Shown here: piece by piece, positions 1,289 through 48,200 of the stretch
Position numbering within the stretch: position 1 is the stretch's first letter
Layout of the letters: the number at the start of each line of letters is the position of its first letter
Assembly: GCA_030704615.1 (NCBI GenBank)
Contig: CM060734.1
Location: 372,001 to 436,000, forward strand
Source of the DNA: Takakia lepidozioides
Taxonomy: Eukaryota; Plantae; Bryophyta
Reading direction: 5' to 3'
Length of the DNA: 64,000 nt
The notes under the pieces: model-generated
What the model saw: the letters and a program-made list of their open reading frames with translations, nothing else
Database searches by the model: none
What the model was told of the DNA's origin: nothing
Position numbers and translations under genes: made by a program

Positions 1289-1805
1289 GGCCACACCGGG
1301 GGAGCCTCTGGCATTGTTTGTATGCCGTACTTGGGCTTTCCATAGAGGGGCGTGCTAGATTGTGAGCAGCTCACGTGAGCAGAAAAAACTGTTGCAGGAT
1401 TCTGCTCATAGTTCTCGCCCTATTACCGCGGACCTGTACTTGCTGGAAGCCCTATTACCGTGGGCTTCAAGTATGGAAAAGGGAGCATTTTTTTGAAGAG
1501 TGAGTCTGTGGGTTAGCAGCAACATTGTGGAGTGGTTGATTGATGTTTGAGTGTGTTTTAAAAATGAGTTGGATGAAAGAAGTGGATGAACGATGGATGA
1601 ATGTGCGATAAAAAAAGATGGATGAGAAAGTGGATGAATGAAAACACATCTTCAAACATGCAAGGGAGGGAAACTGGTGCTTCATAAATGTATGTCTTAA
1701 AACAAATGAGTCAATCCAAAAAGGCACTTCCCTATCCGATTTTGAACCCAAAACTGATGCAGAACTGTCTATAAAGATACTAGCCCTGCTCTGCACAAAA
1801 CCGGC

Positions 1806-4800
1806 TTAAAATAAATTTAAATTGTGGAATGGCTTGAGGGGGGGAGCGCGTCGATGGGGAGGCAAATGATATATTAGTCTGTTGTGTCTCCGCACATGTT
1901 CAAGCACATGCAGGCAAAAGAGGGGTTTCAACCACATCCGTTCAATGGGTGCAATAGCCGTGCATGCATTGCAGGATTTCTTTTTCGCATTGAACAAAAA
2001 CCAGATGACAAGTGAACGCCTCATTGGACAATCGAATGATTTTGTATTACACTGGGACGTATCAGAGGGTACATTGAACACACTGGCCAAGTTTCAATTT
2101 TTGGCGGGGGAGTAGCCGTGGGATGCTGGAAGCCGCAGAACAAAATCGATACGTACCAAAAACCCCCACTGAAAGGCAGTGCAAACCTATTTATTGGCTT
2201 AAAATAAATTTAAATTGTGGACTAGCTTGAGGGGGGGAGCGCGTCGATGGGGAGGCAAATGATATATTAGTCTGTTGTGTCTCCGCACATGTGTCGCACA
2301 CATGTTCAAGCACATGCAGGCAAAAGAGGGGTTTCAACCACATCCGTTCAATGGGTGCAATAGCCGTGCATGCATTGCAGGATTTCTTTTTCGCATTGAA
2401 CAAAAACCAGATGACAAGTGAACGCCTCATTGGACAATCGAACGATTTTTGATTGATCTCGTATTACACTGGGACGTATCAGAGGGTACATTGAACACAC
2501 TGGCCAAGTTTCAATTTTTGGCCGGGGAGTAGCCGTGGGATGCTGGAAGCCGCAGAACAAAATCGATACGTGCCAAAAACCCCCACTGAAAGGCAGTGCA
2601 AACCTATTTATTGGCTTAAAATAAATTTAAATTGTGGAATGGCTTGAGGGGGGAGCGCGTCGATGGGGAGGCAAATGATATATTAGTCTGTTGTGTCTTC
2701 GCACATGTGTTGCACACATGTTCAAGCACATGCAGGCAAAAGAGGGGTTTCAACCACATCCGTTCAATGGGTGCAATAGTCGTGCATGCATTGCAGGATT
2801 TCTTTTTCGCATTGAACAAAAACCAGATGACAAGTGAACGCCTCATTGGACAATCAAACGATTTTTGATTGATCTCCTATTACACAGGGACGTATCAGAG
2901 GGTACATTGAACACTCTGGCCAAGTTTCAAAGTGAACGAAAATCATTTGGATGGGCAACCATCCGTTCACCCGTTGAATGTATTCTGTTGGAGTTGCTAT
3001 TGCTTTGGGACCTGCTGGACTGTGTTTCGCGTGCTCACGATTTTTTTTTCATTCTGTTTTTGAATGGGTCGTGTAATGTAGCCATATGCAACGTGCGTGC
3101 CAAATTTGGGAGCGATCAAAATTCATTTGGACCCAAAACGACAGTTTCTTCCCTGTTTTGCACTCCAAACTTGATTTGTGTTCTACTTCATGCACTCTTC
3201 ATATAGAGTTCAGCAATAGTGAGCGAAGAGAACATTTTTTTTTGGGGGCATTTTTTATTGGTCGAAATTTCGGTGGGGGAGTAGTCGTGGGATGCTGGAA
3301 GCCGCAGAACAAAATTGAGCCAAAAACAAAATCAATACGTACCAAAAACCCCCACTGAAAGGCAGTGCAAACCTATTTATTGGCTTAAAATAAATTTAAA
3401 TTCAATTAAATTGTGGAATGGCTTGAGGGGGGAGTGCGTCGATGGGGAGGCAAATGATATATTCGTCTGTTGTGTCTCCGCACATGTATCGCACACATGT
3501 TCAAGCTCATGCGGGCAAAAGAAGGGTTTCAACCACATCCGTTCAATGGGTGCAATAGCCGTGCACGCATTGCAAGATTTCTTTTTCGCATTGAACAAAA
3601 ACCAGATGACAAGTGAACGCCTCATTGGACAATCGAACGATTTTTTATTGATCTCGTATTACACTGAGACGTATCAGAGGGTACATTGAACACACTTGCC
3701 AAGTTTCAAAGCGAACGAAAATCATTTGGATGGGCAACCATCCGTTGGCCCATTGAACGAATTTCAATTGATCTCATATTACTCTGGGGCCTCTTACATG
3801 GCACATTGAACATAGTGGCCAAGTCTCAAAGCGAACCAAAATCATTTCGATGGACAGCCATCCGTTGAGTCATCGAATGAATTTCGATTGATCTGATATT
3901 AGTCCGGGACATGCGAGAGGGTGTCTGGAACGTGCTGGAAAAGTTTGGAAGCTAACAAAAATGATTTGGATGGGCAACCATCCGTTCACCCGTTGAATGT
4001 ATTATGTTGGAGCTGCTATTGCTTTTAGGACCTGTTGGACTGTGTTTTGCGTGCTCACGATTTTTTTTTTATTCCGTTTTTGAATGGGGCGTGTAATGTA
4101 GCCATATGCAACGTGCGCGCCAAATTTGGGAGCGATCAAAATTCATTTGGACCCAAAACGACAATTTCTTCTCTGTTTTTGTACTCCAAACTTGATTTGT
4201 GTTCTACTTCATGTACTCTTTATAGAGAGTTCTGCAATAGTGAGCGAAGAGAACACTTTTTTTTGGGGGCATTTTGGATTGGTCGAAATTTTGGCGGGGG
4301 AGTAGCCGTGGTATGCTGGAAGCCGCAGAACAAAATTGAGCCAAAAACAAAATCGATACGTGCCAAAAAACCCCACTGAAAGGCAGTGCAAACCTATTTA
4401 TTGGCTTAAAATAAAATAAAATTCAATTAAATTGTGGAATGGCTTGAGGGAGGAGCGCGTCGATGGGGAGGGAAATGATATATTAGTCTGTTGTGTCTCC
4501 GCACATGTGTTGCACACATGTTCAAGCACATGCGGGCAAAAGAGGGGCTTCAACCACATCCGTTCAATGGGTGCAATAGCCGTGCACGCATTGCAAGATT
4601 TCTTTTTCACATTGAACAAAAACCAAATGACAAGTGAACGCCTCATTGGACAATCGAACGATTTTCAATTGATCTCGTATTACACTGGGACGTATCAGAG
4701 GGTACATTGAACACACTGGCCAAGTTTCAAAGCGAACGAAAATCATTTGGATAGGCAACCATCCGTTGGCCCATTGAACGAATTTCGATTGATCTCATAT

Positions 4801-5050
4801 TACTCTGGGGCCTCTTACATGGCACATTGAGCATAGTGGCCAAGTCTCAAAAGCGAAACAAAATCATTTGGATGGCCAACCATCCGTTGAGCCATCGCAT
4901 GAATTTCGATTGATTTGATATTAGTCCGGGACCTGATACATGGTATGTTGAACATAATGGCAAAGATTGAAAGCAAACGAAAATCATTTGGATGGGCAAC
5001 CATTCAATCGCCCATTGAATGAATGGGGTTTCGTCTTCGATTATATTGGG
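1806..5050 (+). repeat. Hierarchical tandem array: five 0.4-1.0 kb units containing about 120-bp sub-repeats with a GGATGG-GCAA-CCATCC hairpin
   Basis: The unit start ttaaaataaat...aaattgtggaatggcttgaggg recurs near 1806, 2199, 2616, 3385 and 4406. The sub-repeat aaaatcatttggatgggcaaccatccgtt recurs from about 2940 to 5000. The repeated short ORFs in the track reflect this array. Confidence 0.92.
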
Positions 5051-6622
5051 ACCTGTTATATGGTATGCCCTTTGAAGCTCTTTTTGTAGTGTCTCCTGCC
5101 TCGTAATGCGGTGCTTCTCCATGTCCACTTTATCCAATATGTTAATATTCTCCACCTGGAACAGATCCACATATGTGTGCAGAAATCCTTAAAAAACAAA
5201 TGACCATCTCAACTTTTATAAGCCTCATCCCCAGCTTCCAGTTTTGATGGTCATTTGGTTTTTTAAGTTCGAATGTGTGGATATGTTCCAGATGGAAGAT
5301 ATTAACATTGGAAAAATAAGAGTTGGAGAAGCACCTCATTACGAAGCAAGAGACATTACAGAAGACCTCAGCATGTTGAACATCTGGATGAAGAACCTTG
5401 CCCATCGTCGCTTCAAAGTTCTAGCGCTTCTGAAATGATCACATGTTTGTTGGTGGAAGCAGATCTCGTAGGCCACATTGATCTCGTACCCATCGAAGAC
5501 TCCCGTAGGCCATATGGAACGGTTCGTGTGATACATTTTCACAAATGCGATGTGATACATTTGTGAAATGGTATCACATCAACCGTTAATGTGGCCAATG
5601 CACGTCTTCCGCACCATGGCGAAAATGTTCGTCACTTTAAAGCACAAACACAACTCATTTTGCTACTCCCATGCCAACAACATCAGGTCCACTGCGATTG
5701 CCATATTCCGAATTCCGTATCAGCCACCACGGACATGAAACCAGGAACTTCGCACAAAATCTCCAATTCATTCAATTTATGGTGGGCCATGGCTGCAGCC
5801 TTCAAGCTGGCCGTGGTGGCTGATAAGTCCGTTTGAACATGACAGTCTCAGAGGACGTTGGCATGGGAATAGAAAAAAGAGTACTACAGAATTCAGCTAG
5901 AGGAACAACAATAGCATGAAACACCTTACCGTAAATATGATTGTTGACATTGGCTGTGACAGCTCCAATCAATAGAGAACTCGCACCATCAGTTGCGTTC
6001 CAACAGCAGTACCGGTCCCTCGAGTAAATAAAATTTTGTTGTAAATAATAAATTGCATACGCTCGAACCTCACAAATGTCATTTCAACAAAACCGGCCGT
6101 GTATTGTGGCACTGTTTGTAACTGCGAATGTTTCAATGTTTCTGACAGGGTACTGAGAAAATGATATATTGGATCCATAGGAGTTGGACAACAAACGTTC
6201 CATATCTCATTCAACTATGCGATACCACCATGAGTGGCATGGATAAAAAAGTAATAGCTGTACATGCGACCTCCGCATGTTTAAGTAGAGACATAGTATC
6301 AAACGTTCGGAGTCGCATGTGCACCTATTACTTTCCGATCCATGCCTCTCATGGTAGTGTCGCATAGTTGAATGAGAGGAGACGTTTGATGTCTAACTTC
6401 TACGGAACTAATACATCGTTTTCTTATAACCCTAACCGAAACCTTGGAACATTACAAATATAAACAGTGAGCCAGTACACAAACCATTTATGTTGCGATG
6501 ACAGGTGCCAGGGTCGAGCATATGCAATGTAATATTTACAATGGGACTTTATTTAAATTGAGTTATGTCTTCATAAAAGAACCATTGTACCGCCAGAAAT
6601 GTCATATCTACGAGACTATGGT

Positions 6623-16923: not shown

Positions 16924-17372
16924 TGGGAGAAGCCAATGAAATCACCACATTGTATGACTGATTCACCGGTCTATTCCAGCCATATATTACACTTGGGCAA
17001 TTTTTAGTGGTGCTACAAAGGGCGAGGCCACATACAAGAGAAGCATAAAAGCATATGAGCCAGTAGGTATCTAAAAGTGACATGAGGCATCGGCTACAGG
17101 GGACTGGTTGATGGTCTCTTTCAATGATGAATGGCCTTTAAAAAAAAAAAACCCCCCACCCTCCCATCCTGAGATTTCATGTACTCTGAAATCCCCTGTA
17201 GCCGATGCCTCATGTCACTTTTAGATACCTACTGGCTCATATGCTTTTATGCTTCTCTTGTATGTGGCCTCGCCCTTTGTAGCACCACTAAAAATTGCCC
17301 CAAGTGTAATGTATGGCTGGAATAGACCGGTGAATCAGTCATACAATGTGGCGATTTCACTGGCTTCTCCCA
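16924..17372. repeat. Inverted repeat with arms of about 180 bp (16924-17103 / 17192-17372) and a spacer of about 90 bp
   Basis: The arms are reverse complements with only a few mismatches. Confidence 0.93.
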
Positions 17373-18947
17373 TTATGTATCTTTCCAGCAGCGTTGATAC
17401 GGCTTGGAAAGAGTGTCACGTACTGATTCATACCTTGGAAAATTGATTCTGAAACCAGTAAGTTGACTCACATCATGATAAGGTTCCTCGAACAAGGATC
17501 CTTACCTGGTTAAATTTGGCTAATAGGGTGAAATGATGTGCAACAATTTGCTGCCATTGGCTGAAGAACACTTATAATTTCTATGCTCATGCCTGTCCAC
17601 TTGTGTGAAGGCTATGTTGACAAGCTAAAAGGTAACCTAGAAACTGATCAGTACTATGTTTTGCCTAGCATGATTTATGCTTCACCATTGTTCATTCTTG
17701 GTCCGGGAGGAGAGATTGTAGGCCTTTTATCCTTTTGGTATTTAAAGTCCACGGATAAAACTACAATGTAGAGGGAGAGCTTTACGAGAATGGGTCTGGT
17801 ATGCACTCCCTTACGGGGTGAGTGCATACCACACTCACTCCGTAAGGGACTGCCATGTCAGGGGTTCGGATGGTGGGTTCCCTCTCTCTCCCTCTCTCTC
17901 CCTCCCTCCCTCCAGATATCTATTTGGGATTTAAAATATGATTTTCCAGTTTGGAATCTATTGTTATATAACCCCCAAAAAAATTAAAAATTTCAGGGGC
18001 TCATCCGTACTAGATGAACACCTCATGAAAAATGTGGCTTGATGTTTTTTGCCTAAAATGGATGATTACTGGACAGCCTGGTATTTTTTGAAGTATTGCT
18101 TAAAAACTGATGAATGGCTGGTTTTTTCATCCATGTTGGATGTCATCCATAAAGGAGCATTAATAGAATGTCTGATTTCTAAAAAGCTCTTCGGATGTGC
18201 TGCTCAGCAATTTTTAAGCTACAGCAGAATAACAAGCACTGTTTACCACCCCATAAACACTTCACAGGTCTGGATATAGTGTTCCAGAACCCTAGCATGT
18301 CGTTTTTAGTGCATCACAAGAACTTTCAAAGCATTGCCAAAGGTAAAAAATAAAGCCAAAGGGTCATGAAAACATATGACAGATCTGATATAGCATAACC
18401 AGGGCATGGCAGTCCCTTACGGAGTGAGTGTGGTATGCACTCACCCCGTAAGGGAGTGCATACTAGACCCATTCTCGTAAAGCTCTCCCTCTACATTGTA
18501 GTTTTATCCGTGGACTTTAAATACCAAAATGATAAAAGGCCTACAATCTCCCCTCCCGGACCAAAAATGAACAATGGTGAAGCATAAATCATGCTAGGCA
18601 AAACATAATACTGATCAGTTTCTAGGTTACCTTTTAGCTTGTCAACATAGCCTTCACACAAGTGGACAGGCATGAGCATAGAAATTATAAGTGTTCTTCA
18701 GCCAATGGCAGCAAATTGCTGCACATCATTTCACCCTATTAGCCAAATTTAACCAGGGAAGGATCCTTGTTCGAGGAACCTTATCATGATGTGAGTCAAC
18801 TTACTGGTTTCAGAGTCAATTTTCCAAGGGTATGAATCAGTACGTGACACTCTTTCCAAGCCGTATCAACGCTGCTGGAAAGATACATAATGGGAGAAGC
18901 CAGTGAAATCACCACATTGTATGACTGATTCACCGGTCTATTCCAGC
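17316..18947. repeat. Long inverted repeat with arms of about 540 bp (17316-17857 / 18405-18947) and a spacer of about 550 bp
   Basis: The arms are reverse complements. Mirrored ORFs 17583..17771 (+) and 18491..18679 (-) differ at one residue. Confidence 0.95.
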
Positions 18948-19265: not shown

Positions 19266-19279
19266 TGTTTTGTTTTGAA

Positions 19280-19358
19280 AGAGAAGACTCCGATCGAGGC
19301 CAGCATAACTAAGAGCCACTTCGCCTTGCGGCTACTGCCTTTTTTCAAAGGGTGGGCC
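19280..19358 (-). mobile_element. Extremely 5'-truncated copy (3' tail only) of the non-LTR element at 36897-39929
   Basis: The reverse complement ggcccaccctttgaaaaaaggcagtagccgcaaggcgaagtggctcttagttatgctggcctcgatcggagtcttctct aligns with 39842-39918. Confidence 0.85.
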
Positions 19359-19388
19359 ATGTACTAGAACAAAGTTTCAAAGTTTCAA

Positions 19389-20014: not shown

Positions 20015-20590
20015 GCAAAAATTCGGACCAAACAAAAATAAAAAAATAAAAAATCTTGGGTCACTATTGCAGAACTCTCTATAAAGAATGCATGACGTTG
20101 AATTCAAATCAACTTTGGAGTGCAAATGAGGGCATAAAATATGGTTTTGGGTACAGATGAATTTTGTTCACTCCCAAATTTTGCACACACATTGCATATG
20201 CTGTCATTAAACATATGGTTGAAAAATAGAGTTAAAAAAAAATCATGTGCAGGCGAAACACAACTTTCCGTCTCCACAACACGTACATGTCCATTCAAAG
20301 GGCGAACGAACAGTTGACCATCCAAATGATTTTTGTTTACTTTCAAACTTTGCCAGTATGTTCAATATGCCATCTAACAGGTCCCAAATAAATATGATAT
20401 CAAAGAAAATTCATTCAAAGGGCGATCAAATCATCGCCCATCCAAATGATTCTTGTTTGCTTTGAAACTTTTGTATGTTTTGCATACCATCCGACATGTC
20501 CCAGACATATACGAGATTAATCGAAATTCATTCACTGGGCCAACGGATGGTTGCCCATCCAAATGATTTTTGTTTGCTTTGAAACTTTGC
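20015..20590 (-). repeat. Inverted, diverged copy of the 1806-5050 array, directly downstream of the CACTA ORF
   Basis: aacggatggttgcccatccaaatgattttt (about 20542-20570) is the reverse complement of the 120-bp sub-repeat core. Further copies lie at about 20310 and 20430. Confidence 0.8.
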
Positions 20591-32300: not shown

Positions 32301-35026
32301 CTTTTCTCCATCCGAATAAGTATGAATTTAGTCATTGCATTAGTACCATAAAACCCAAGGAGGTGATGGTTGAGGAGTGATGTGTTACAATGAGAAGATG
32401 TGTATGCTTCAATGAATAGGAGAATTAGAGGGAGTCAGAAATGCATTTTACTCAGTGCCGATAGTAGGGAGAATGGAAGTAGGAAGATTGTCCTGTCCCA
32501 AACACTGATTACACTAATAATGGTTGCCATCTAATAGACAGAAGGAGATAATTACTCATAAGACGTTGTTTGGCGTAGCCTTGTGGCCATAGACCCTGTG
32601 CCCAGTGTGGAACAAGAGGGAACAGACACTACCTTTTTGAGGGGCTCACTCCAGTAGTGGGACTTACCTTGATATGAACAATCAGTCCTCTGGAAAGCCT
32701 TTCATATCAATCTGCTGTTTTGAGCTGCCAAGCAATTAGACCCCAACATGGCCGGAAAGGAGAAAGGAGAGAGAGAGAGGGGGAGTGAAATCAGAGACTG
32801 ATAGAATTCGCTCCTGGGTATGAAGAGATCCACAGTTGAGAACCGGGGGTGAAATCAACAGATAGGCATATCACTGTTGAGGGTTTATTCAGGTATCCCC
32901 TTGGTGGGAAGAGAACGCAAAGAGTGTCACAGTGCAAGCGCTGAGGTGACATGCCCATATGTTCCCCACACTCCAAGAATATGTTGCCCTCTACTGTGAC
33001 ATGCCCATATGTTCCCTCTAGACAAAAACTCAGAGAGCGAAACTGCACTTCATATGTTCCCTCTAGACAAGAGAGATACAAACTGCACTTCTAAACTTTC
33101 TAATTGAGATATTGAACAATGTTCAGTTAGCGAATGGAGGGAAAGTATTTACTAACGAACAGACATTGGTGACATGGTGCAGGTGGCAGCAAAGGCAATC
33201 GGGGTGATTCCGAGTCTTATTATATACCCAATCATTCCCTTCCTTGTGGAAGCAATATTTCTCATTTACTGGGTGGCAGCGTTGCTCTACCTCTTCAGTG
33301 CTGGGGAGGTCCGCCAAAACCAGTGCAATAACAGCTGCGCAGCGTACGACCTTGCTTTGCAATCCATCAGGGATACTGATTGCTGTGGATATGATATGCA
33401 CCACACTAAAAATATTGTGTGGGCCATCCTGTACCATATTTTTGGCGTCTTCTGGATCACACAATTCATAACTGCATGTTGTCTTACCACAATTGCTGGA
33501 CCTATTGCGGCCTACTACTGGGCGAGGGGAGAAACAGCTGTAAGCCTTTATAACCACGTCCTTACTTAGGCATAGTCGAAACCACGGAAGCTTGGACAGA
33601 GCCAAAAGGCTGGAGGTTTCAGGGGGGTATTGAATTGGAGAGTATTAATGTGGAAGAGTGAAGAGTGTGGGTTGAACTTCTACATGCAGTAAAGTCAAGT
33701 TAGTGAGGGAAAGTGTGTTTGCTGAAAAGCAGTTGAAACATATTCTTGGAGTGTGGGGAAGTAGAGGGTTCAAATAAAACATACAGCGCAGATCAATGTG
33801 GAAAGCATTGTTCACTGAGACTGAAAGATTGGACTGCAATGATCTGGCAGGACATGGGCTGGCTGTCCGTGGTATCGTCAGCAAAGCGGGTAGTGCGCTA
33901 CAGCTTGGGGTCGATGGCACTGGGGTCATTATTGGTGGCCATCATTCAGATGATACGCTTCCTGCTTGAGTTGTTGCGGAAAAAACTCAAGCCACTGGAG
34001 ATGGCTCCTGGTGGCTGCTGTCTCTCTATTTGCTTCTGTTGTGCTCAGTTTTGCCTGGTTTGCATTGAGTGGACCATCAAATTCATCAACCGCAATGCGT
34101 ACATTGTGGTACGTGTCTTTGCTCCATATGGGTCCCTCCATCGACATTACCTTCTTTCAGCTCCTCTTCTTCTGCAGTCAGATTATGGACAGGCAGTTTT
34201 TGACGTGATGGAGAGGAGGAGAGTGTCACTCATGTGGCTGTATATATTCACACGGTGTTGAGTGATTTATCTGATTACTGTTAAAAGGAAATGATGTGAT
34301 GACTTCAATATGGGGATTGCTGTAATAACATCTCAACCTTGCAATGCAGATTGCCATCTCTGGAAAGGGATTTTGTGGAGCTGCTGGAAAGGCCACTGGT
34401 TTGATTGTTAGCAACATATTGAGGGTAGGTGCTGTCAATATAATAGGAGACCTCATATTATACTTGGGCAAAGTCTGCGTGAGCCTGGCCTGTGCTCTCT
34501 TTGCCTTTCTCATGCTGGATACCCATAAGTACAAGAGCGGCCACAACAGAGTGTCTTCGCCCCTCTTTCCTGTTCTGGTAAGTGCTTTATCCTTCTAATG
34601 CACGCTGTCCAATTTGCTGGTCCTTCTATCACCAGTTTAGTCCCCATGGAAGCGAGATCCCTTTGACCATCACAGTTTAGTGCAAAGGTCATGATTAAGG
34701 GTAGCTTGATCACAGCATCTTTGCTGTTTCCAAGGGACATATTTGTCAGGTTTTATCCCCCATAAAGCTCAAATCACGGGTGGTGGGTGTTGCAGTCTTG
34801 CTGGTTAATTGGCTACATCACGGCCTCCATGTTTTTTGCGGTGGTAGAGATGGCCCTCGACACTATACTCCTGGCCTTCTGCATGGATTCAGAGGAGCAT
34901 AATGGTACTCCCATGTACGTGCCACCATTGCTCATCGATACATTGACTAATCACACCCACCGGCAAGAGGCTGCTGAGGCAGAGCGAGCCAGGCGGAAAC
35001 AGGAAAAGGCTGCTGGTCGAAATTGA
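29356..35026 (+). CDS. CTL1: Choline transporter-like protein (CTL/SLC44 family), 10 exons: 29356-29621, 30147-30505, 30980-31125, 31282-31465, 31817-31893, 32164-32277, 33183-33539, 33851-34108, 34350-34577, 34796-35026
   Basis: GT-AG introns join in frame. Family motifs RKCRD, YGLDYKGNVCG, RYSLGSMALGSL, IKFINRNAYI, GKGFC, NILRV and DTILLAFCMD are present, and no disruptions were seen. Confidence 0.93.
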
Positions 35027-36896: not shown

Positions 36897-39800
36897 AAAG
36901 ATACCCCCCCCCAAGAAACCACGCTCCCTTACCAAACTAGAAGGGGCATATGCACACCATACGCTACCTCATGATATCCTCGCTTTATTTATCAACACAT
37001 TCTAGCTCACTCACTCATATTACTCCAGCCCACTCTCATGCCCTATCAACACATTTGCTAGTCCACATCAGAGAGATTGTATCTTTGGGGCCACAGGCAG
37101 TGCAACACAGCACTCATGAGGGTAGGGGTATTGCCCACCCCGCTCCGGGACCCCTGGCCCATGAAGCCCTTCAATGGGCATGATTCGCCGCCCACTCATC
37201 CTCCCAAGCCTCCACAATACTTATACTCACTCAACAAAACGCACCCGACGCCTCTCATCCTCTCCTACGCCTCCCAACTGGGGTCAATTTACTAGCCACT
37301 ATCGAACCAAACCAACTTAAATATGTGCATACCCCACCTCTTCCCAAATATCTTAGACGAAAGGAACCTACTCTAACCTTGATTCTACATGTCCACCATT
37401 CCCCCCATTTCCATATGCCGGCCCCCTTCTTGCACCAGTTAACGCAATTACTAACTGTAACACACAAGATAAAAACTACCATCCATCACCTGCCTACCGC
37501 CCCATGCCACTATTCATCCACCACATTTCCCAAGATTAAACCAAATAAAGCCTGGAAGGCGTTGTCGCCCCCCCCCCCCCCCAGGACACTCCACCAATAC
37601 CCCTACCCCATATCCCTTCAATATATCGGCAAAACACCACCCTTAAATACCCCCCGGCCAACTCACACTATACTGATGGATCCCTCACCAAACCCAACGC
37701 AGGATACAGAATTTACCACGCCGGTACCGGCCAAGGGGTTGCCCTCAGGCTCCCTGGCCCTGCCACCATCCTAAGAGCTGAACTCATGGCCATACACGAT
37801 GTTCTCTCCCTACTTGACGCCTTCCCCCCCCCATACTGCATCTTCACCGACAGCCTCACCTCTCTATTTCTTGTTTGAAACCACATCTCCCGCCCTTCCT
37901 CCCAGCACCATCACCCTGACTGATATCTCATTGCCGCCATTGTCAACATGGCCATTTCTAAAAACCACCCAGTCCACCTACTCAAAGTCTGCTCACACAC
38001 TGACATTCATCGCAATGAGGAAGCAGACCTACTTGCTCAACTTGGCGCCTCAAAACCCAAAGTTGACCCCTCGGACGACCCTATCCATATTGCCCACACC
38101 CACCCCTTCTGGTTTATACACCCCGTCCCAGACCCCCCTACACCCAGATCAATCCGTAACCTTCTGACCACTCTTACCCGGGAAGCAAATAAACAAACTG
38201 AATCTTCCATCAACCACACTAAAGTACACATTAAAAAATGGACTCAATCCAATGTACTACACCACAAACTCTCCAATCACTTCTGGCTAACCAAAGTTAC
38301 CACTGATGCACAAATCCGACAAACACTCAAATTTCAGATACGCCCAGTACAGCGTAGTTGCAGGATAAGGTGGACCAAAAACGGCAGATGCTGCCTTTAA
38401 CGGAAGTCCATGACCAAATTTAAATTGACAATATTTCCCCAAATAATTTCAAATGATGATAGACAATGGTATATTTAACATTTTTAGTAAAGGGTCTTAC
38501 CCCAAACATCAAAGATAATTTTTACTATAAATTTTAGTTTTTAATTTGAATAAAATTTGATATATCAAAAATTAGAATTTACATCAATTTGTCTATATAC
38601 AACCAAGCCATTGTAGATTATATTTTTGTATCATTTGCAGTAAAATATGACACCTCAAAAGCCCAAAACACAATATGTACTAAACTAGAACAAATCCACT
38701 TATATATAACACTCATATTAGTTCATAAGTAGTAAATGACAGCTGATATTGTCATTTTAAATTGAAATCTAGAGTGCTCTCTAAATCGACCCCTTTACCT
38801 CAAAAGTTCAAAACAATACACCAAAGGCACAATGGCTTATTTTGAGTCTATGTATTTCCATTTGCAGTGGTGACAGTCCACAATTGTCGTGTTCAAAAGT
38901 CCATACCTCTTGGACATTTTATTTGATTGACAATTTGACGATTGATATAGGTAGACATTGAAGTTAGGAATCCGGCATGGAAATGTTTCTCAACCATACT
39001 GATTTTATTCAAAGCAATTCATGATGTCATGCACGACAGTCATTGAAAACTGTGTCGGTGATGCTAATTTTGGTCCACCTTACCCTGCATCTACCCTACA
39101 TGGGACATCAACACAAACATATCTTCTGGCCGCATCTATTCCCATCCCCCTACTGCCCATTATGCTCAACTACTCACCAAGAACGTGACACTTGGCCGCA
39201 CCTCCTTAGCCAATGTACGCACCCAATTATACATTGCCTTCATATCACACGTCATAACCACGCAGTCTGACATCTCCACAAACTCTTTTTAAACCGCATG
39301 GCTGCTACCATGCATATGCACCCGATCACCATGCTCCTGCCCTACTAGGCTTTGCCCGGACATACTCCTTGTCCAGGGCCTACCCATTAACACCCTGTCA
39401 CCCACCTCACCATCCCCACAACTCACTATACACTTCATTGAATTTACATTCTGCCATGATCGATATCCCAACGACTCGATTATAGAAAAACGGCAAAAAT
39501 ATGCTCCGCTTATCCTCGCAATCCGACGCCGTGGCTGGAAAACCGGCCCATTAACCGTCATCACCGCCAATACTCGAGGCGGCATTCATAACGCCAGTAT
39601 CAACGACATACATGATAACTTCAAAATCCCCATCCTCCCCATCCACTAATGTTTTAAAGCAATCCACCTCACGACGCTCCGTTCCCTCACAACTATTATC
39701 ACCAATAAACGCCAATTGGAATCCCGACACTCCAAACGCACCCTAGGTCCCCCAAGGTACCCCTGGGTACCCAGGGGTACCACATACCCCTCTATTTTCT

Positions 39801-39929
39801 ACGATCACTTGGTGTCCCACAAGACACCTTTCTTTTTATAGGGCCCACCCCCGAAAGGGGGCAGTAGCCGCAAGGCAAAGTGGCTCTTAGTTACGCCGAC
39901 TTCGGCCGGAGTCTTCTCTCTCTCTCTCT
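36897..39929 (+). mobile_element. 5'-truncated non-LTR retrotransposon with RNase H, CCHC zinc finger and restriction-like endonuclease (Dualen/RandI-like)
   Basis: RNase H: YTDGS (about 37670), ILRAELMAI, IFTDSLTSL, LLKVCSHTDIHRNEEAD. Zinc finger: CPLC..DTWPHLLSQC..RHN. RLE: PDILLV..HFIEFTFCHD..EKRQKYAPL..RGGIH. Ends in a (CT)n tail. Confidence 0.8.
38351..39097. mobile_element. 747-bp AT-rich MITE with TIRs of about 30 bp, inserted in the LINE ORF
   Basis: Left end agcgtagttgcaggataaggtggaccaaaa versus reverse complement of the right end agggtagatgcagggtaaggtggaccaaaa. Flanked by AC (or TAC). Removal restores FRYAQ-Y-MGH. Confidence 0.88.
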
Positions 39930-45235: not shown

Positions 45236-48200
45236 CTGCAGGTACCACTGCAAGGTTGGGATCTATCCTCCCATCTACATGGAAAAGGTGACATGGCGCA
45301 CAATTGCGCACATGGTCCTTCCATACCATGCCATCCCGTCCCTCCAGAATCAACACTTCTGAAGGCAACACCTCCCTGACCCTTAGAATCACACGTCCGG
45401 CTGTGACATCCAAGGTTGTTGGTGTTGTCTGCTGCAGATACACATAGTCCCCAGGGTTGAATCTCCAAACACCCGGTTGATATCCTCCTCCATGTATAGT
45501 GGCTTACCTCAATGTGTCTCGGTGTTGGGCAATAGCAAGGTTCTCAAAAGCCAATAGGCACGACTCTCTTGAAATACTCTGTCCGCTGATTACACGCTTG
45601 TGTCCACACATCCGGATCATCAAGGTCGAGGACTACTGCAACCTCCTTGCGAATAGATGCAGGCAAATCTGGCTCTGGGCCGAAGAGAAGAAAGTAAGGT
45701 GAGAACGAGGCAAGTGATGTTTGCTTACTAAACATGTAGCCCATGGCCAACCAAGGTAGCTGAAGGTCCCAATCCCCTAAGTGTCCCTTCTGCAAGCCAT
45801 ACTTGTGCAAGCCTCTCTTGACTATCTGAACAACTCTCTCCGCCAAGCCATCAGCCTCGGGATGATCCCGAGAAGTAGTGCGGTGATCTATCAAGGTTTG
45901 CTCGCACAAAGCCTGAAACTCCCCCAAGAACTCTCTCCCCTGGTCCGTGAGTACCTCGGCTGGAGCACCAAATTGGCTAAGCACTCAATCTAAGAATGCA
46001 TACGCAGCCCCATCACTTGCCTTGTCAGGCAATGCCACCAGTTCAATCCATTTGGAGAAATGTTCCACCATCACCAGTACATACTTGTTATGGCGAATCG
46101 TTAGTGGCAATGGGCCTGCGAAGTCAAGGCTCCAACGATAGCCCAAACCCATAATGGGTAAATGATGCAATTGTGGAGTAGGGGCATTGAAAGAAGCCCG
46201 CACTCTATCACACACCATGTATCTTGCCACTAACTGCTGCACATCCGTGTGCATGCCCCGCCACCAGTACTGCCCTTGCAACAAACTATGAGTGCGCCGC
46301 ACCCCAAAATGTCCCAACTCCTCATGGCATGGCGTACCAATCGCGCTCGTTGTGTTGGATGAGGCACAATCCTCACTTGTCCATCCTCCCATACACGGAG
46401 TAGGTGAGTCCCCTCCTATTTGAACCTCTTGGCTCGTTGTAGGATCCGATCTCTCTCCTTCGCAGTCACACTAGCTACTATCTCTCCGGCACGAAGATAG
46501 GCCAACACTGCTGCATCTTCATGCACATCCTTAGCACCACCAAGCTCCTCACTAATCTCTGGATCGTCATGCACACTATCTCCATGACCAATCCCATGGG
46601 GTGGACCAGCTTGAGCTCATATTGCTAGAATGCACAAAAAGGCAGATGCATGTCATCCTGGCACCATCTCCTCGTCCATCTCACCATGCCAACGAGCTCT
46701 TGTACCATCAAGCTCACTTGTGCATGGATTACGACTCAATCCATCCGCATCCCGGTTGACTATACCGGCTCGATGCACCACTTGAAAGTCGTACTTTTGA
46801 AGCATAAGTGCCCACCATGCAAGCTTCCCTATAAGCTTGTCTGACTCCATCAACCACTTCAATGGTTGCTGATCCGTGACAAGGGTGAAGAGATTGCCAT
46901 AGAGATAGCATTTGAAATGTGCCACTGCCCATACTGCAGCTAAACACTCTCCTTCATATGAGCTATACTTTGCCTCAGCATCATTGTTCGAGCAGTAAGC
47001 ATATGCCACTACGAACTCTCTTTCCTCATCATCCACTTGTGTGAGCACTGCTCCAATCCCCAGCATACTCCAATCCGTATGTAGCTGGAAAGGCCGCCCC
47101 CGAATAGGCCACCTCAGAATAGTTGCAAAAGTCAATTGAGCCTTGAGTTCCTCAAAGGCTTCCTCCTGCTCCTCCTCCCACTGCCACTCCTGACCCACCT
47201 TGGTCAACTTGGTAAGAGCTTTCGCGCAATGCTGCTAAATCCCTTGACAAACTGACGATAGTAGTTTGCCAACCCCATGAAAGCATGAACTCTGCTTACA
47301 TCTATGGGGCGTGGAATGCGTGCAATGGCCTCCACCTTTGTCTGTTGAACACCCAATCCTCCAGGGTATATCATGTGGCCCAAATACTCAATCTGATCGT
47401 GGAAGAACTTGCACTTTCCAGGGTGCAGTTTCAATCCATGCGCCCTCAAGCGCTCAAACACCACCTGAAGGTGTCTCTTATGCTCCTCAACCGTGGCACT
47501 AAAGATGATGATGTTATCAATGTAGCACCAGGCGAAGTCTAGCCCTGCAAGAATCCTATCCATGACCCTCTGAAACTCTGCAGAAGCATTCTTCAACCCA
47601 AATGGTAGGAAGCGCCATTGGTACAAACAATCCTTCCCATGCTGGTCAATCCCCCAGAATGCCGTTTTTTGCATGTCAGCCTCTTTGATTGGCAACTGGT
47701 GATAACCCGATCGTAAGTCCAATGTGCTAAACACCTTTGCATGCCCAATGGCATCAAAGATTTCCTCTGGAGTTGGCATGGCATATCTATCGGACTTAGT
47801 CTGACGGTTCACCGGACGATAGTCCCCACACATCCTTCTTTCTATCCAATTGCCATAGATATCCTTCTTAGCTGGCATCACCGTTGCCGAGGCATACTCC
47901 CCGCCTGACAACTCCACCAATTCAGCTTCAAACAACTCCATAGTCCGTGACTGGATCAATGACCTCTCCATGTCACTATACCTGTGGGGCCTTTGAAAAA
48001 TTGGCGTGTCACTTGCCAAATCAATACAAATCTCCTGGCCCTTCAACCTCCCCAAATCCTTCAAACCAAAGATAAAGCAATTTCTATAAGCCCTTAGAAA
48101 TTGTCGGATCCTCCGTCTCTCTCCTCCGGTGACTATAGGTCCAACATCTGGTTCTTAATTGTCCTCAGTGACTGCAACCTTGGGTACACCAGGCTTGGAG

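Follow-up and report, generated by a model that had tools for sequence, protein, structure and literature searches.

SINEs normally need the head of an RNA gene for their transcription. In UnaL2, a stringent 3' stem-loop is taken as the recognition signal for the reverse transcriptase (RT). Maque, at about 60 bp, has been explained by an 'RT signal only' model and is not known to have a Pol III promoter. The cited excerpt on Maque, which comes from Anopheles gambiae, names it as a SINE (PMC2278371). Maize LINE1-1_ZM with ZmSINE2/3 has a conserved hairpin with compensatory changes next to the tail, taken in the part of the source consulted as an RT recognition signal (PMC3472496). According to an excerpt of another source, RandI LINEs have partner SINEs with common 3' ends, i.e. 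SINEX-1, -2 and -4 (PMC3747384).

Here, a 64-kb window was analysed (the whole stretch of 64,000 nt of Takakia lepidozioides DNA), in which a LINE remnant ends in a module of about 85 nt with a predicted tight fold. The same module is found elsewhere as stand-alone copies. As a LINE-tail-derived short retroposon it belongs to a known kind, here with a nucleotide-sharp 5' end.

The Chlamydomonas elements SINEX-1, -2 and -4_CR, with their RandI-2/Dualen partners, are like the module short and non-autonomous, with a common LINE 3' end, simple-repeat ends and, in the passages cited, no identified RNA-gene head (PMC3747384). In contrast to SINEX, and as compared by description only, the whole module (~85 nt) corresponds to the shared 3' part; it lacks an additional head, its tail is (CT)n and its fold comprises several helices. 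Like Maque, the module is an extremely short interspersed element that would comprise little beyond a putative RT recognition signal and a repeat tail. Maque differs in its host and LINE clade, whereas the partner LINE of the module is still attached in some copies and its fold is elaborate, with covariation. The stringent 3' stem-loops of other LINE/SINE pairs are single stem-loops on tRNA-headed SINEs, while the module is predicted to form a three-way junction plus a hairpin and is amplified headless. Finally, R2 SIDEs (PMC3414825) and Perere-3 twister variants (PMC8501958) are, in the cited passages, non-LTR elements with a precise 5' end set at the RNA level. These use known HDV-like or twister ribozymes at their 5' end, and the module has none of those cores.

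The LINE and its 3' module

The preliminary description had placed a compact structured RNA at the 3' end of a LINE, starting at 39841. The module does terminate a 5'-truncated Dualen/RandI-like LINE, and the reported hairpin, AGTA/GCAA and CT-tail letters are all present at 39841-39929. Its start has to be corrected to 39838, based on the groups of 5' loose ends in the contigs described below. The features of the LINE and of both module copies in the window are as follows.

36907..39763 (+): decayed, 5'-truncated Dualen/RandI-like LINE ORF remnant, with pre-RNase H region, RNase H, CCHC and RLE-type C-terminus
38343..39104 (no strand): AT-rich MITE-like insertion with ~38-nt imperfect terminal inverted repeats, which interrupts the LINE ORF in the CCHC region
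39811..39837 (+): upstream 6-bp hairpin (39811-39828) and CTTTCTTTTT tract (39828-39837), directly 5' of the module
39838..39929 (+): module copy 1, LINE-linked, ~76-nt structured core and CT tail, 5' edge at A39838
39840..39887 (+): P1, closing stem of the predicted three-way junction, 39840-47 with 39881-87, C39844 bulged
39848..39861 (+): P2, hairpin of five C-G pairs with GAAA loop, the best-supported helix (pair probability 0.98-0.99)
39862..39880 (+): P3, hairpin with GCAA (GNRA) loop and predicted AGUA/GAA loop E-type internal loop
39889..39914 (+): P4, hairpin adjoining the tail, majority ccggc-UUCG-gccgg, possibly extended by AG/AC with GU/CU pairs
39914..39929 (+): TT(CT)n tail, with copies ending at 39921, 39923, 39925 and 39929 in the loose-end tables
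19275..19360 (-): module copy 2, stand-alone, same 5' edge within 2 nt, short tail

Within the LINE, the RNase H lies at about 37666-37854 (Pfam RNase_H, E 8.8e-6). The C-terminal piece (39293-39733) has 301 relatives at E<=1e-3; it has no Pfam match, and we take it to be of RLE type from its PD..IEFT motif. The two longest of the top relatives, P0001 and P0005, are colinear with the window LINE by tblastn and both carry RNase H. RNase H is followed in the window LINE by a CCHC finger and a C-terminal restriction-like endonuclease, which is the order given for the C-terminal half of Dualen/RandI elements in the cited part of the source (PMC5029228). APE and RT domains are not seen in this copy, which is truncated at ~36900, and a longer relative was not found, a weak negative. 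Because both domains are absent from the truncated copy, membership in Dualen/RandI is, judged from the sequence, likely rather than proven. LINE and module together lie between flanks that read as one continuing minus-strand LTR-element ORF. A gene with introns, the LTR and CACTA-type elements and a plant metagenome among the runs with matching contigs point to a eukaryotic host, probably a plant.

Two minor features of the LINE were also observed. Near the end of its ORF, a perfect 26-nt palindrome is present at 39756-39781, of which 39757 and 39772 vary among other copies. The stretch 36907-37450 aligns to the part of P0005 and P0001 that matches Pfam PCIF1_WW below the cut-off (E 7.8e-7 and 0.014, respectively); a cap-methyltransferase-like domain may have been captured here by these LINEs.

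Copy 1 reads gggcccac / ccccc-GAAA-ggggg / C-AGTA-gcc-GCAA-ggc-AAA-G / tggctc, followed by the CT tail to 39929. Copy 2 shares 82.9% identity with it over 82 nt (E 6e-16) and is indeed module-only as previously proposed, its 5' flank being unrelated to the LINE. A profile built from both copies detected no third copy in the 64-kb window (next match E 1.7), and no clear target-site duplication was seen at either of the two window copies.

Copy number and the fixed 5' end

Population data consisted of public sequencing contigs placed on the module at 80% likeness, with X1 to X3 derived from one sample and X5 and X6 from two other studies. The summed depth in X1 is ~1,000-2,600 across the 100 nt before the module and reaches 287,000 on it, and only 68 of 2,313 X1 records lie solely upstream. 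Overlapping contigs inflate such depths; therefore, copy numbers were calibrated by simulating the contig-placement procedure. This yields a rough estimate of ~500-1,300 module copies and, equally roughly, ~20 LINE-linked copies within 80% of the window LINE, more diverged LINE UTRs being missed. A figure of ~8,000 copies, obtained by dividing raw depth by single-copy depth, was rejected as the simulation revealed this inflation.

The largest group of 5' loose ends listed is at 39838, with 75 contigs in X1, 75 in X2 and 17 in X5, and no consensus emerges from the flanks at these starts (agreement 0.37-0.44). In a second group, at 39836, there is partial resemblance to the sequence found upstream in the LINE itself. 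At 39840-43 the depth is 23% of the peak. In the simulations, this value was 24-36% when all copies were full-length, 12-18% when half were and ~2% under uniform truncation. Thus, at least half of the copies begin at A39838, and uniform random 5' truncation is a poor fit. In the excerpt consulted on R2, truncations in vitro had no preferred start (PMC13000458).

At the other end, the tail ends vary in steps of 2 nt (39921, 39923, 39925, 39929), a pattern that priming of reverse transcription on a CU repeat would be expected to produce. Diverged LINE copies, with 11-23 differences each, continue into the module in all eight X1 pieces among those listed, a list in which long pieces are favoured. 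X6 contributes 66 records on the module, several of them inside long contigs and on both strands; the RNA origin of X6 is a guess, so no expression is inferred from it. None of the listed runs with matching contigs is recorded as RNA.

The module-only copies are a high-copy family with a fixed 5' end, which had been missed in the preliminary description. As in SINEs, the module is short, non-coding, dispersed and multi-copy, has fixed ends, and combines the 3' end of a partner LINE with a simple-repeat tail. No tRNA, 5S or 7SL-type head was found in the module (Rfam, ARAGORN; A and B boxes by regular expression). In this the module departs from a classical SINE, which would have a tRNA-, 5S- or 7SL-derived head with Pol III boxes.

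Evidence on the RNA fold

The GAAA hairpin of copy 2 reads ccttt-GAAA-aaagg. The letters of both copies bear out the three C-G to U-A swaps reported earlier; one extra C before this stem in copy 2 had gone unnoticed. Relative to the population majority, copy 2 carries six C>T, four G>A and one T>C change. When C>T/G>A decay was simulated with CpG-weighted random placement, at least three two-sided changes arose in 797 of 100,000 cases (P=0.008), and for this reason the three swaps exceed such decay. The two-copy paired-change scan omits P1, where the copies are misaligned.

Variant shares in the population data are summed contig depths and not allele frequencies. All changes of at least 1% were listed between 39860 and 39900, and elsewhere the strongest 40 of 113 variant rows (~12% and up). 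The pair closing the GAAA loop varies on both sides, with shares of 39852 C>T and 39857 G>A of 16.6/15.9% in X1, 14.1/12.8% in X2, 18.6/16.8% in X3 and 9.2/5.8% in X5 (four runs, two samples); linkage of 39852T with 39857A is seen in copy 2 only. In P3, 39871 C>T (16.5%) affects the N and 39872 A>G (7.2%) the R of the GNRA loop, 39876 C>T (23%) turns a G-C pair into G.U, and 39877 on the GAA strand is ~10% non-G. In P4, 39903 C>T (31.6%) changes UUCG to UUUG, which is also compatible with the alternative fold of ViennaRNA.

Background decay in X1 (39860-39900) amounts to 3-5% for six CpG positions; other C/G sites range from <1% to 6%, and 14 of the 15 A/T sites stay below 1%. The sole A/T site above 1% is the R position of the GNRA loop, and its N position is the most variable of seven non-CpG C sites. 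Just one G>A reaches 12%, and it affects the base that pairs with an elevated C>T, a match open to 2 of the 27 G sites. All five visible non-private variants of at least 12% fit the fold proposed before the population data; three of them represent C>T changes within CpG, and a stem can always accommodate C>T as a wobble pair. As these common variants fit a fold that was drawn up without them, several source elements under structural constraint are indicated.

The fold claimed earlier is therefore retained in part. Its GAAA and GCAA hairpins are supported by the swaps of copy 2 and by the population variants, while the closing stem, the UUCG hairpin and loop E are without covariation. For the closing stem, gggcccac/gtggctc, pairs are possible, but it is absent from the minimum free energy (MFE) fold. 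The two-copy consensus that had been derived for the GAA strand and for ccggc-UUCG-gccgg equals the population majority, with G in ~90% (39877) and ~97% (39899) of X1 summed depth. The UUCG hairpin thus has the majority letters, but no two-sided change, and one pair is broken in each window copy. The AGUA/GAA letters of loop E are present in the population majority and in copy 2, copy 1 having AAA; the closing C-G of the motif competes with P1, and its invariance is not distinguishable from the low mutability of A/T sites in general.

Three tetraloop-capped stems of at least 3 bp occurred in 7 of 100,000 dinucleotide shuffles, a feature picked after it had been seen. MFE z-scores of -0.40 and +0.20 for the two copies and -1.34 for the majority core (199 of 2,000 shuffles) are not beyond chance, and a two-sequence shuffle control was uninformative (146 of 500). 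ViennaRNA keeps P2 and P3 in its MFE structure and re-pairs the rest, at -34.1 vs -28.9 kcal/mol for the fold proposed earlier, with loop E unmodelled. Taken as a whole, this is a real RNA module, partly supported by covariation, in which P4 is predicted to be the RT-proximal stem-loop.

Comparison with known RNAs and database searches

The Rfam search of the window and of both copies returned nothing at gathering level, with sub-threshold matches only on either copy. With the GAAA and GCAA hairpins supported and no Rfam family assigned, the two outcomes named beforehand as speaking against the proposed RNA, namely changes explained by random decay and a match to a known family, were therefore both not observed.

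The nearest Rfam shape is the glnA glutamine riboswitch aptamer (RF01739), which scores 13.2 bits where 35 are required for gathering (E 2.3). The module has the same hairpin-AGUA-hairpin-GAAG order and a predicted three-way junction with an E-loop, the latter as described for glnA in an excerpt of the source (PMC5393176). It differs in having no GGA before AGUA, an unmatched P1 and a eukaryotic retroelement context. Identity with the riboswitch was ruled out by the sub-gathering score and the missing GGA junction letters, and glnA is a shape analogue only.

The exact module pattern has no match in viral contigs. A degenerate pattern retrieved 3 viral, 51 metagenome and 22 prokaryote-genome loci. 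None of these 76 is BLAST-similar to either copy at E<=1e-3; eight have 3-4 pairable bases in the gap, none with flanking hairpins. Lacking both similarity and flanking hairpins, the loci were treated as chance. A second viral pattern gave at least 120 stretches, at least 94 of them distinct, none of those listed similar to the module, and phage records contained no module match. LINE protein-guided locus searches in viral contigs and word-index protein searches yielded nothing, and a protein atlas search with P0005 returned only RNase H-bearing clusters, under 0.9, which serve as a lead only. No description of the module or of a Dualen 3' RNA fold was found in the literature searched, which was mostly open-access with Repbase and supplements outside its scope; absence of a description is therefore not proof of novelty.

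Origin of the module-only copies

Three functions had been suggested in the preliminary description: an RT recognition signal for target-primed reverse transcription (TPRT), a 3' stability element or an unrecognised ribozyme. The first would fit best, and no known ribozyme core was found. Our preferred explanation, which we consider to have about an even chance of being right, is that the module is a stringent, folded 3' signal gripped by the LINE's reverse transcriptase. A short RNA, likely beginning at A39838, would be retrotransposed by itself and give rise to a headless mini-SINE. The LINE protein would bind the module fold and prime TPRT on the CU tail. The short template would be released from longer LINE or read-through transcripts, most likely by trimming or cutting by host nucleases, and trimming might proceed as far as the U-run, at the 5' foot of a domain that is both folded and bound by protein. 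If templates are released from longer transcripts, many genomic copies could therefore act as sources without a promoter of their own. Directly supported are the LINE linkage, the many stand-alone copies with unrelated flanks, the sharp 5' edge, the 2-nt steps of the CT tail and the structure-compatible variation in P2 and P3. As modelled here, the module is likely a minimal parasite copied by the LINE's enzyme; it might also be an RNA that cuts itself.

The hairpin and CTTT tract upstream of the module count against this preferred explanation and favour a rival, one that we regard as unlikely while giving it real weight. Here, the module is a separately transcribed small RNA, produced under an external promoter at a single master locus or a few of them, with A39838 as its start. 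The LINE's true tail is then the upstream hairpin and CTTT tract, with junctions formed via template jumping or targeted insertion next to the module. The sharp 5' edge is explained in this way without processing. The hairpin directly upstream looks conserved (4 of 6 loop positions and 0 of 12 stem positions are among the strongest 40 of 113 variant rows), and with its CTTTCTTTTT tract it may resemble a complete LINE tail of its own, older or separate. According to the excerpt cited above, SINEX-2 of Chlamydomonas, which is partnered with RandI, has a (CTTT)n end (PMC3747384). Contigs linked to the LINE also show less difference from the window copy in the module than in the upstream UTR; one 395-nt contig has 13 differences in 71 nt upstream vs 9 in 100 nt over tract and module. 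However, all eight listed long X1 pieces that start in the LINE run on into the module (the list favours long pieces), there is no Rfam match to a non-coding RNA, and the module start was not found at the LINE's 5' junction.

A ribozyme is less probable still, and we consider it a rather improbable origin of the edge. The fold would belong to a so far undescribed class of self-cleaving ribozymes, cutting at U39837/A39838 with downstream sequence as its only requirement and freeing the module from LINE or read-through transcripts, after which the 3' hairpin and tail serve TPRT. The nucleotide-sharp edge coincides with a UpA step, 2-3 nt 5' of the predicted P1. The junction is compact and has a loop E-type motif, the three tetraloops are stable, and the single-stranded linker does not vary. 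According to the cited passages, the 5' ends of R2 SIDEs (PMC3414825) and Perere-3 (PMC8501958) owe their precision to ribozymes, but these known 5'-cutting ribozymes of retroelements sit at the element's 5' end. Neither copy has an Rfam ribozyme match at E<=10, and simple descriptors for HDV, hammerhead, twister, hairpin and pistol cores gave 0 matches on both strands. Moreover, the linker is no more invariant than other A/T sites are, and a cut would leave the LINE without its own priming signal if the RT did not jump back. In its full form, which strikes us as a similarly long shot, the module would be both a new self-cleaving RNA class and a TPRT handle. It would be an 85-nt minimal replicon excised from any transcript at its 5' edge and repasted by a Dualen-like RT, the LINE being regenerated by template jumping across the cut.

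That the module-only copies are ordinary 5'-truncated LINE insertions, with RT drop-off at the U-run just upstream, is improbable. The edge abuts a 9-nt U-rich run and the copies have no extra head, but a single base would have to be the stopping point of most events. Additional T's would be expected from drop-off or microhomology in the run, whereas the start of the largest 5' group is exactly 39838, and uniform truncation was rejected by the simulation. Most improbable of all is that no fold is selected and a GC-rich repeat decays by C>T/G>A with chance compensation within subfamilies. The non-significant MFE z-scores, the uninformative shuffle control and the predominance of transitions would allow it; against it stand the decay null (P=0.008) for copy 2, the pairing of the only G>A of at least 12% with an elevated C>T, and the top A/T and non-CpG C sites being the GNRA R and N.

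A high-copy element consisting of a LINE tail only, with a sharp 5' end and signs of structural selection among the copies that act as its sources, raises the question of how a retroposon that has no recognisable promoter keeps making templates. With its 85 nt, the module is a testable candidate RNA signal for the little-studied Dualen/RandI enzymes, and also a candidate new ribozyme. If it does not self-cleave, it would still be an unusual but understandable mini-SINE.

Other features in the window

Copy 2 sits in a diverged relative of nested tandem repeats (1800-5070 and 20015-20590; units ~120 bp and ~1 kb), which are related to sequence near a CACTA-like, DUF4216-bearing ORF. At 17316-17857 and 18405-18947, a 543-bp inverted repeat pair with 98% identity is probably a DNA transposon of recent origin whose terminal inverted repeats are long. 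A further reverse transcriptase ORF, the second, at 47204-48154 (-; RVT_1, E 7e-31), in a strand-skewed region, probably belongs to another LINE and has no module at its end. Finally, a multi-exon host gene, choline transporter-like by eye, is located at 33100-35000 (+).
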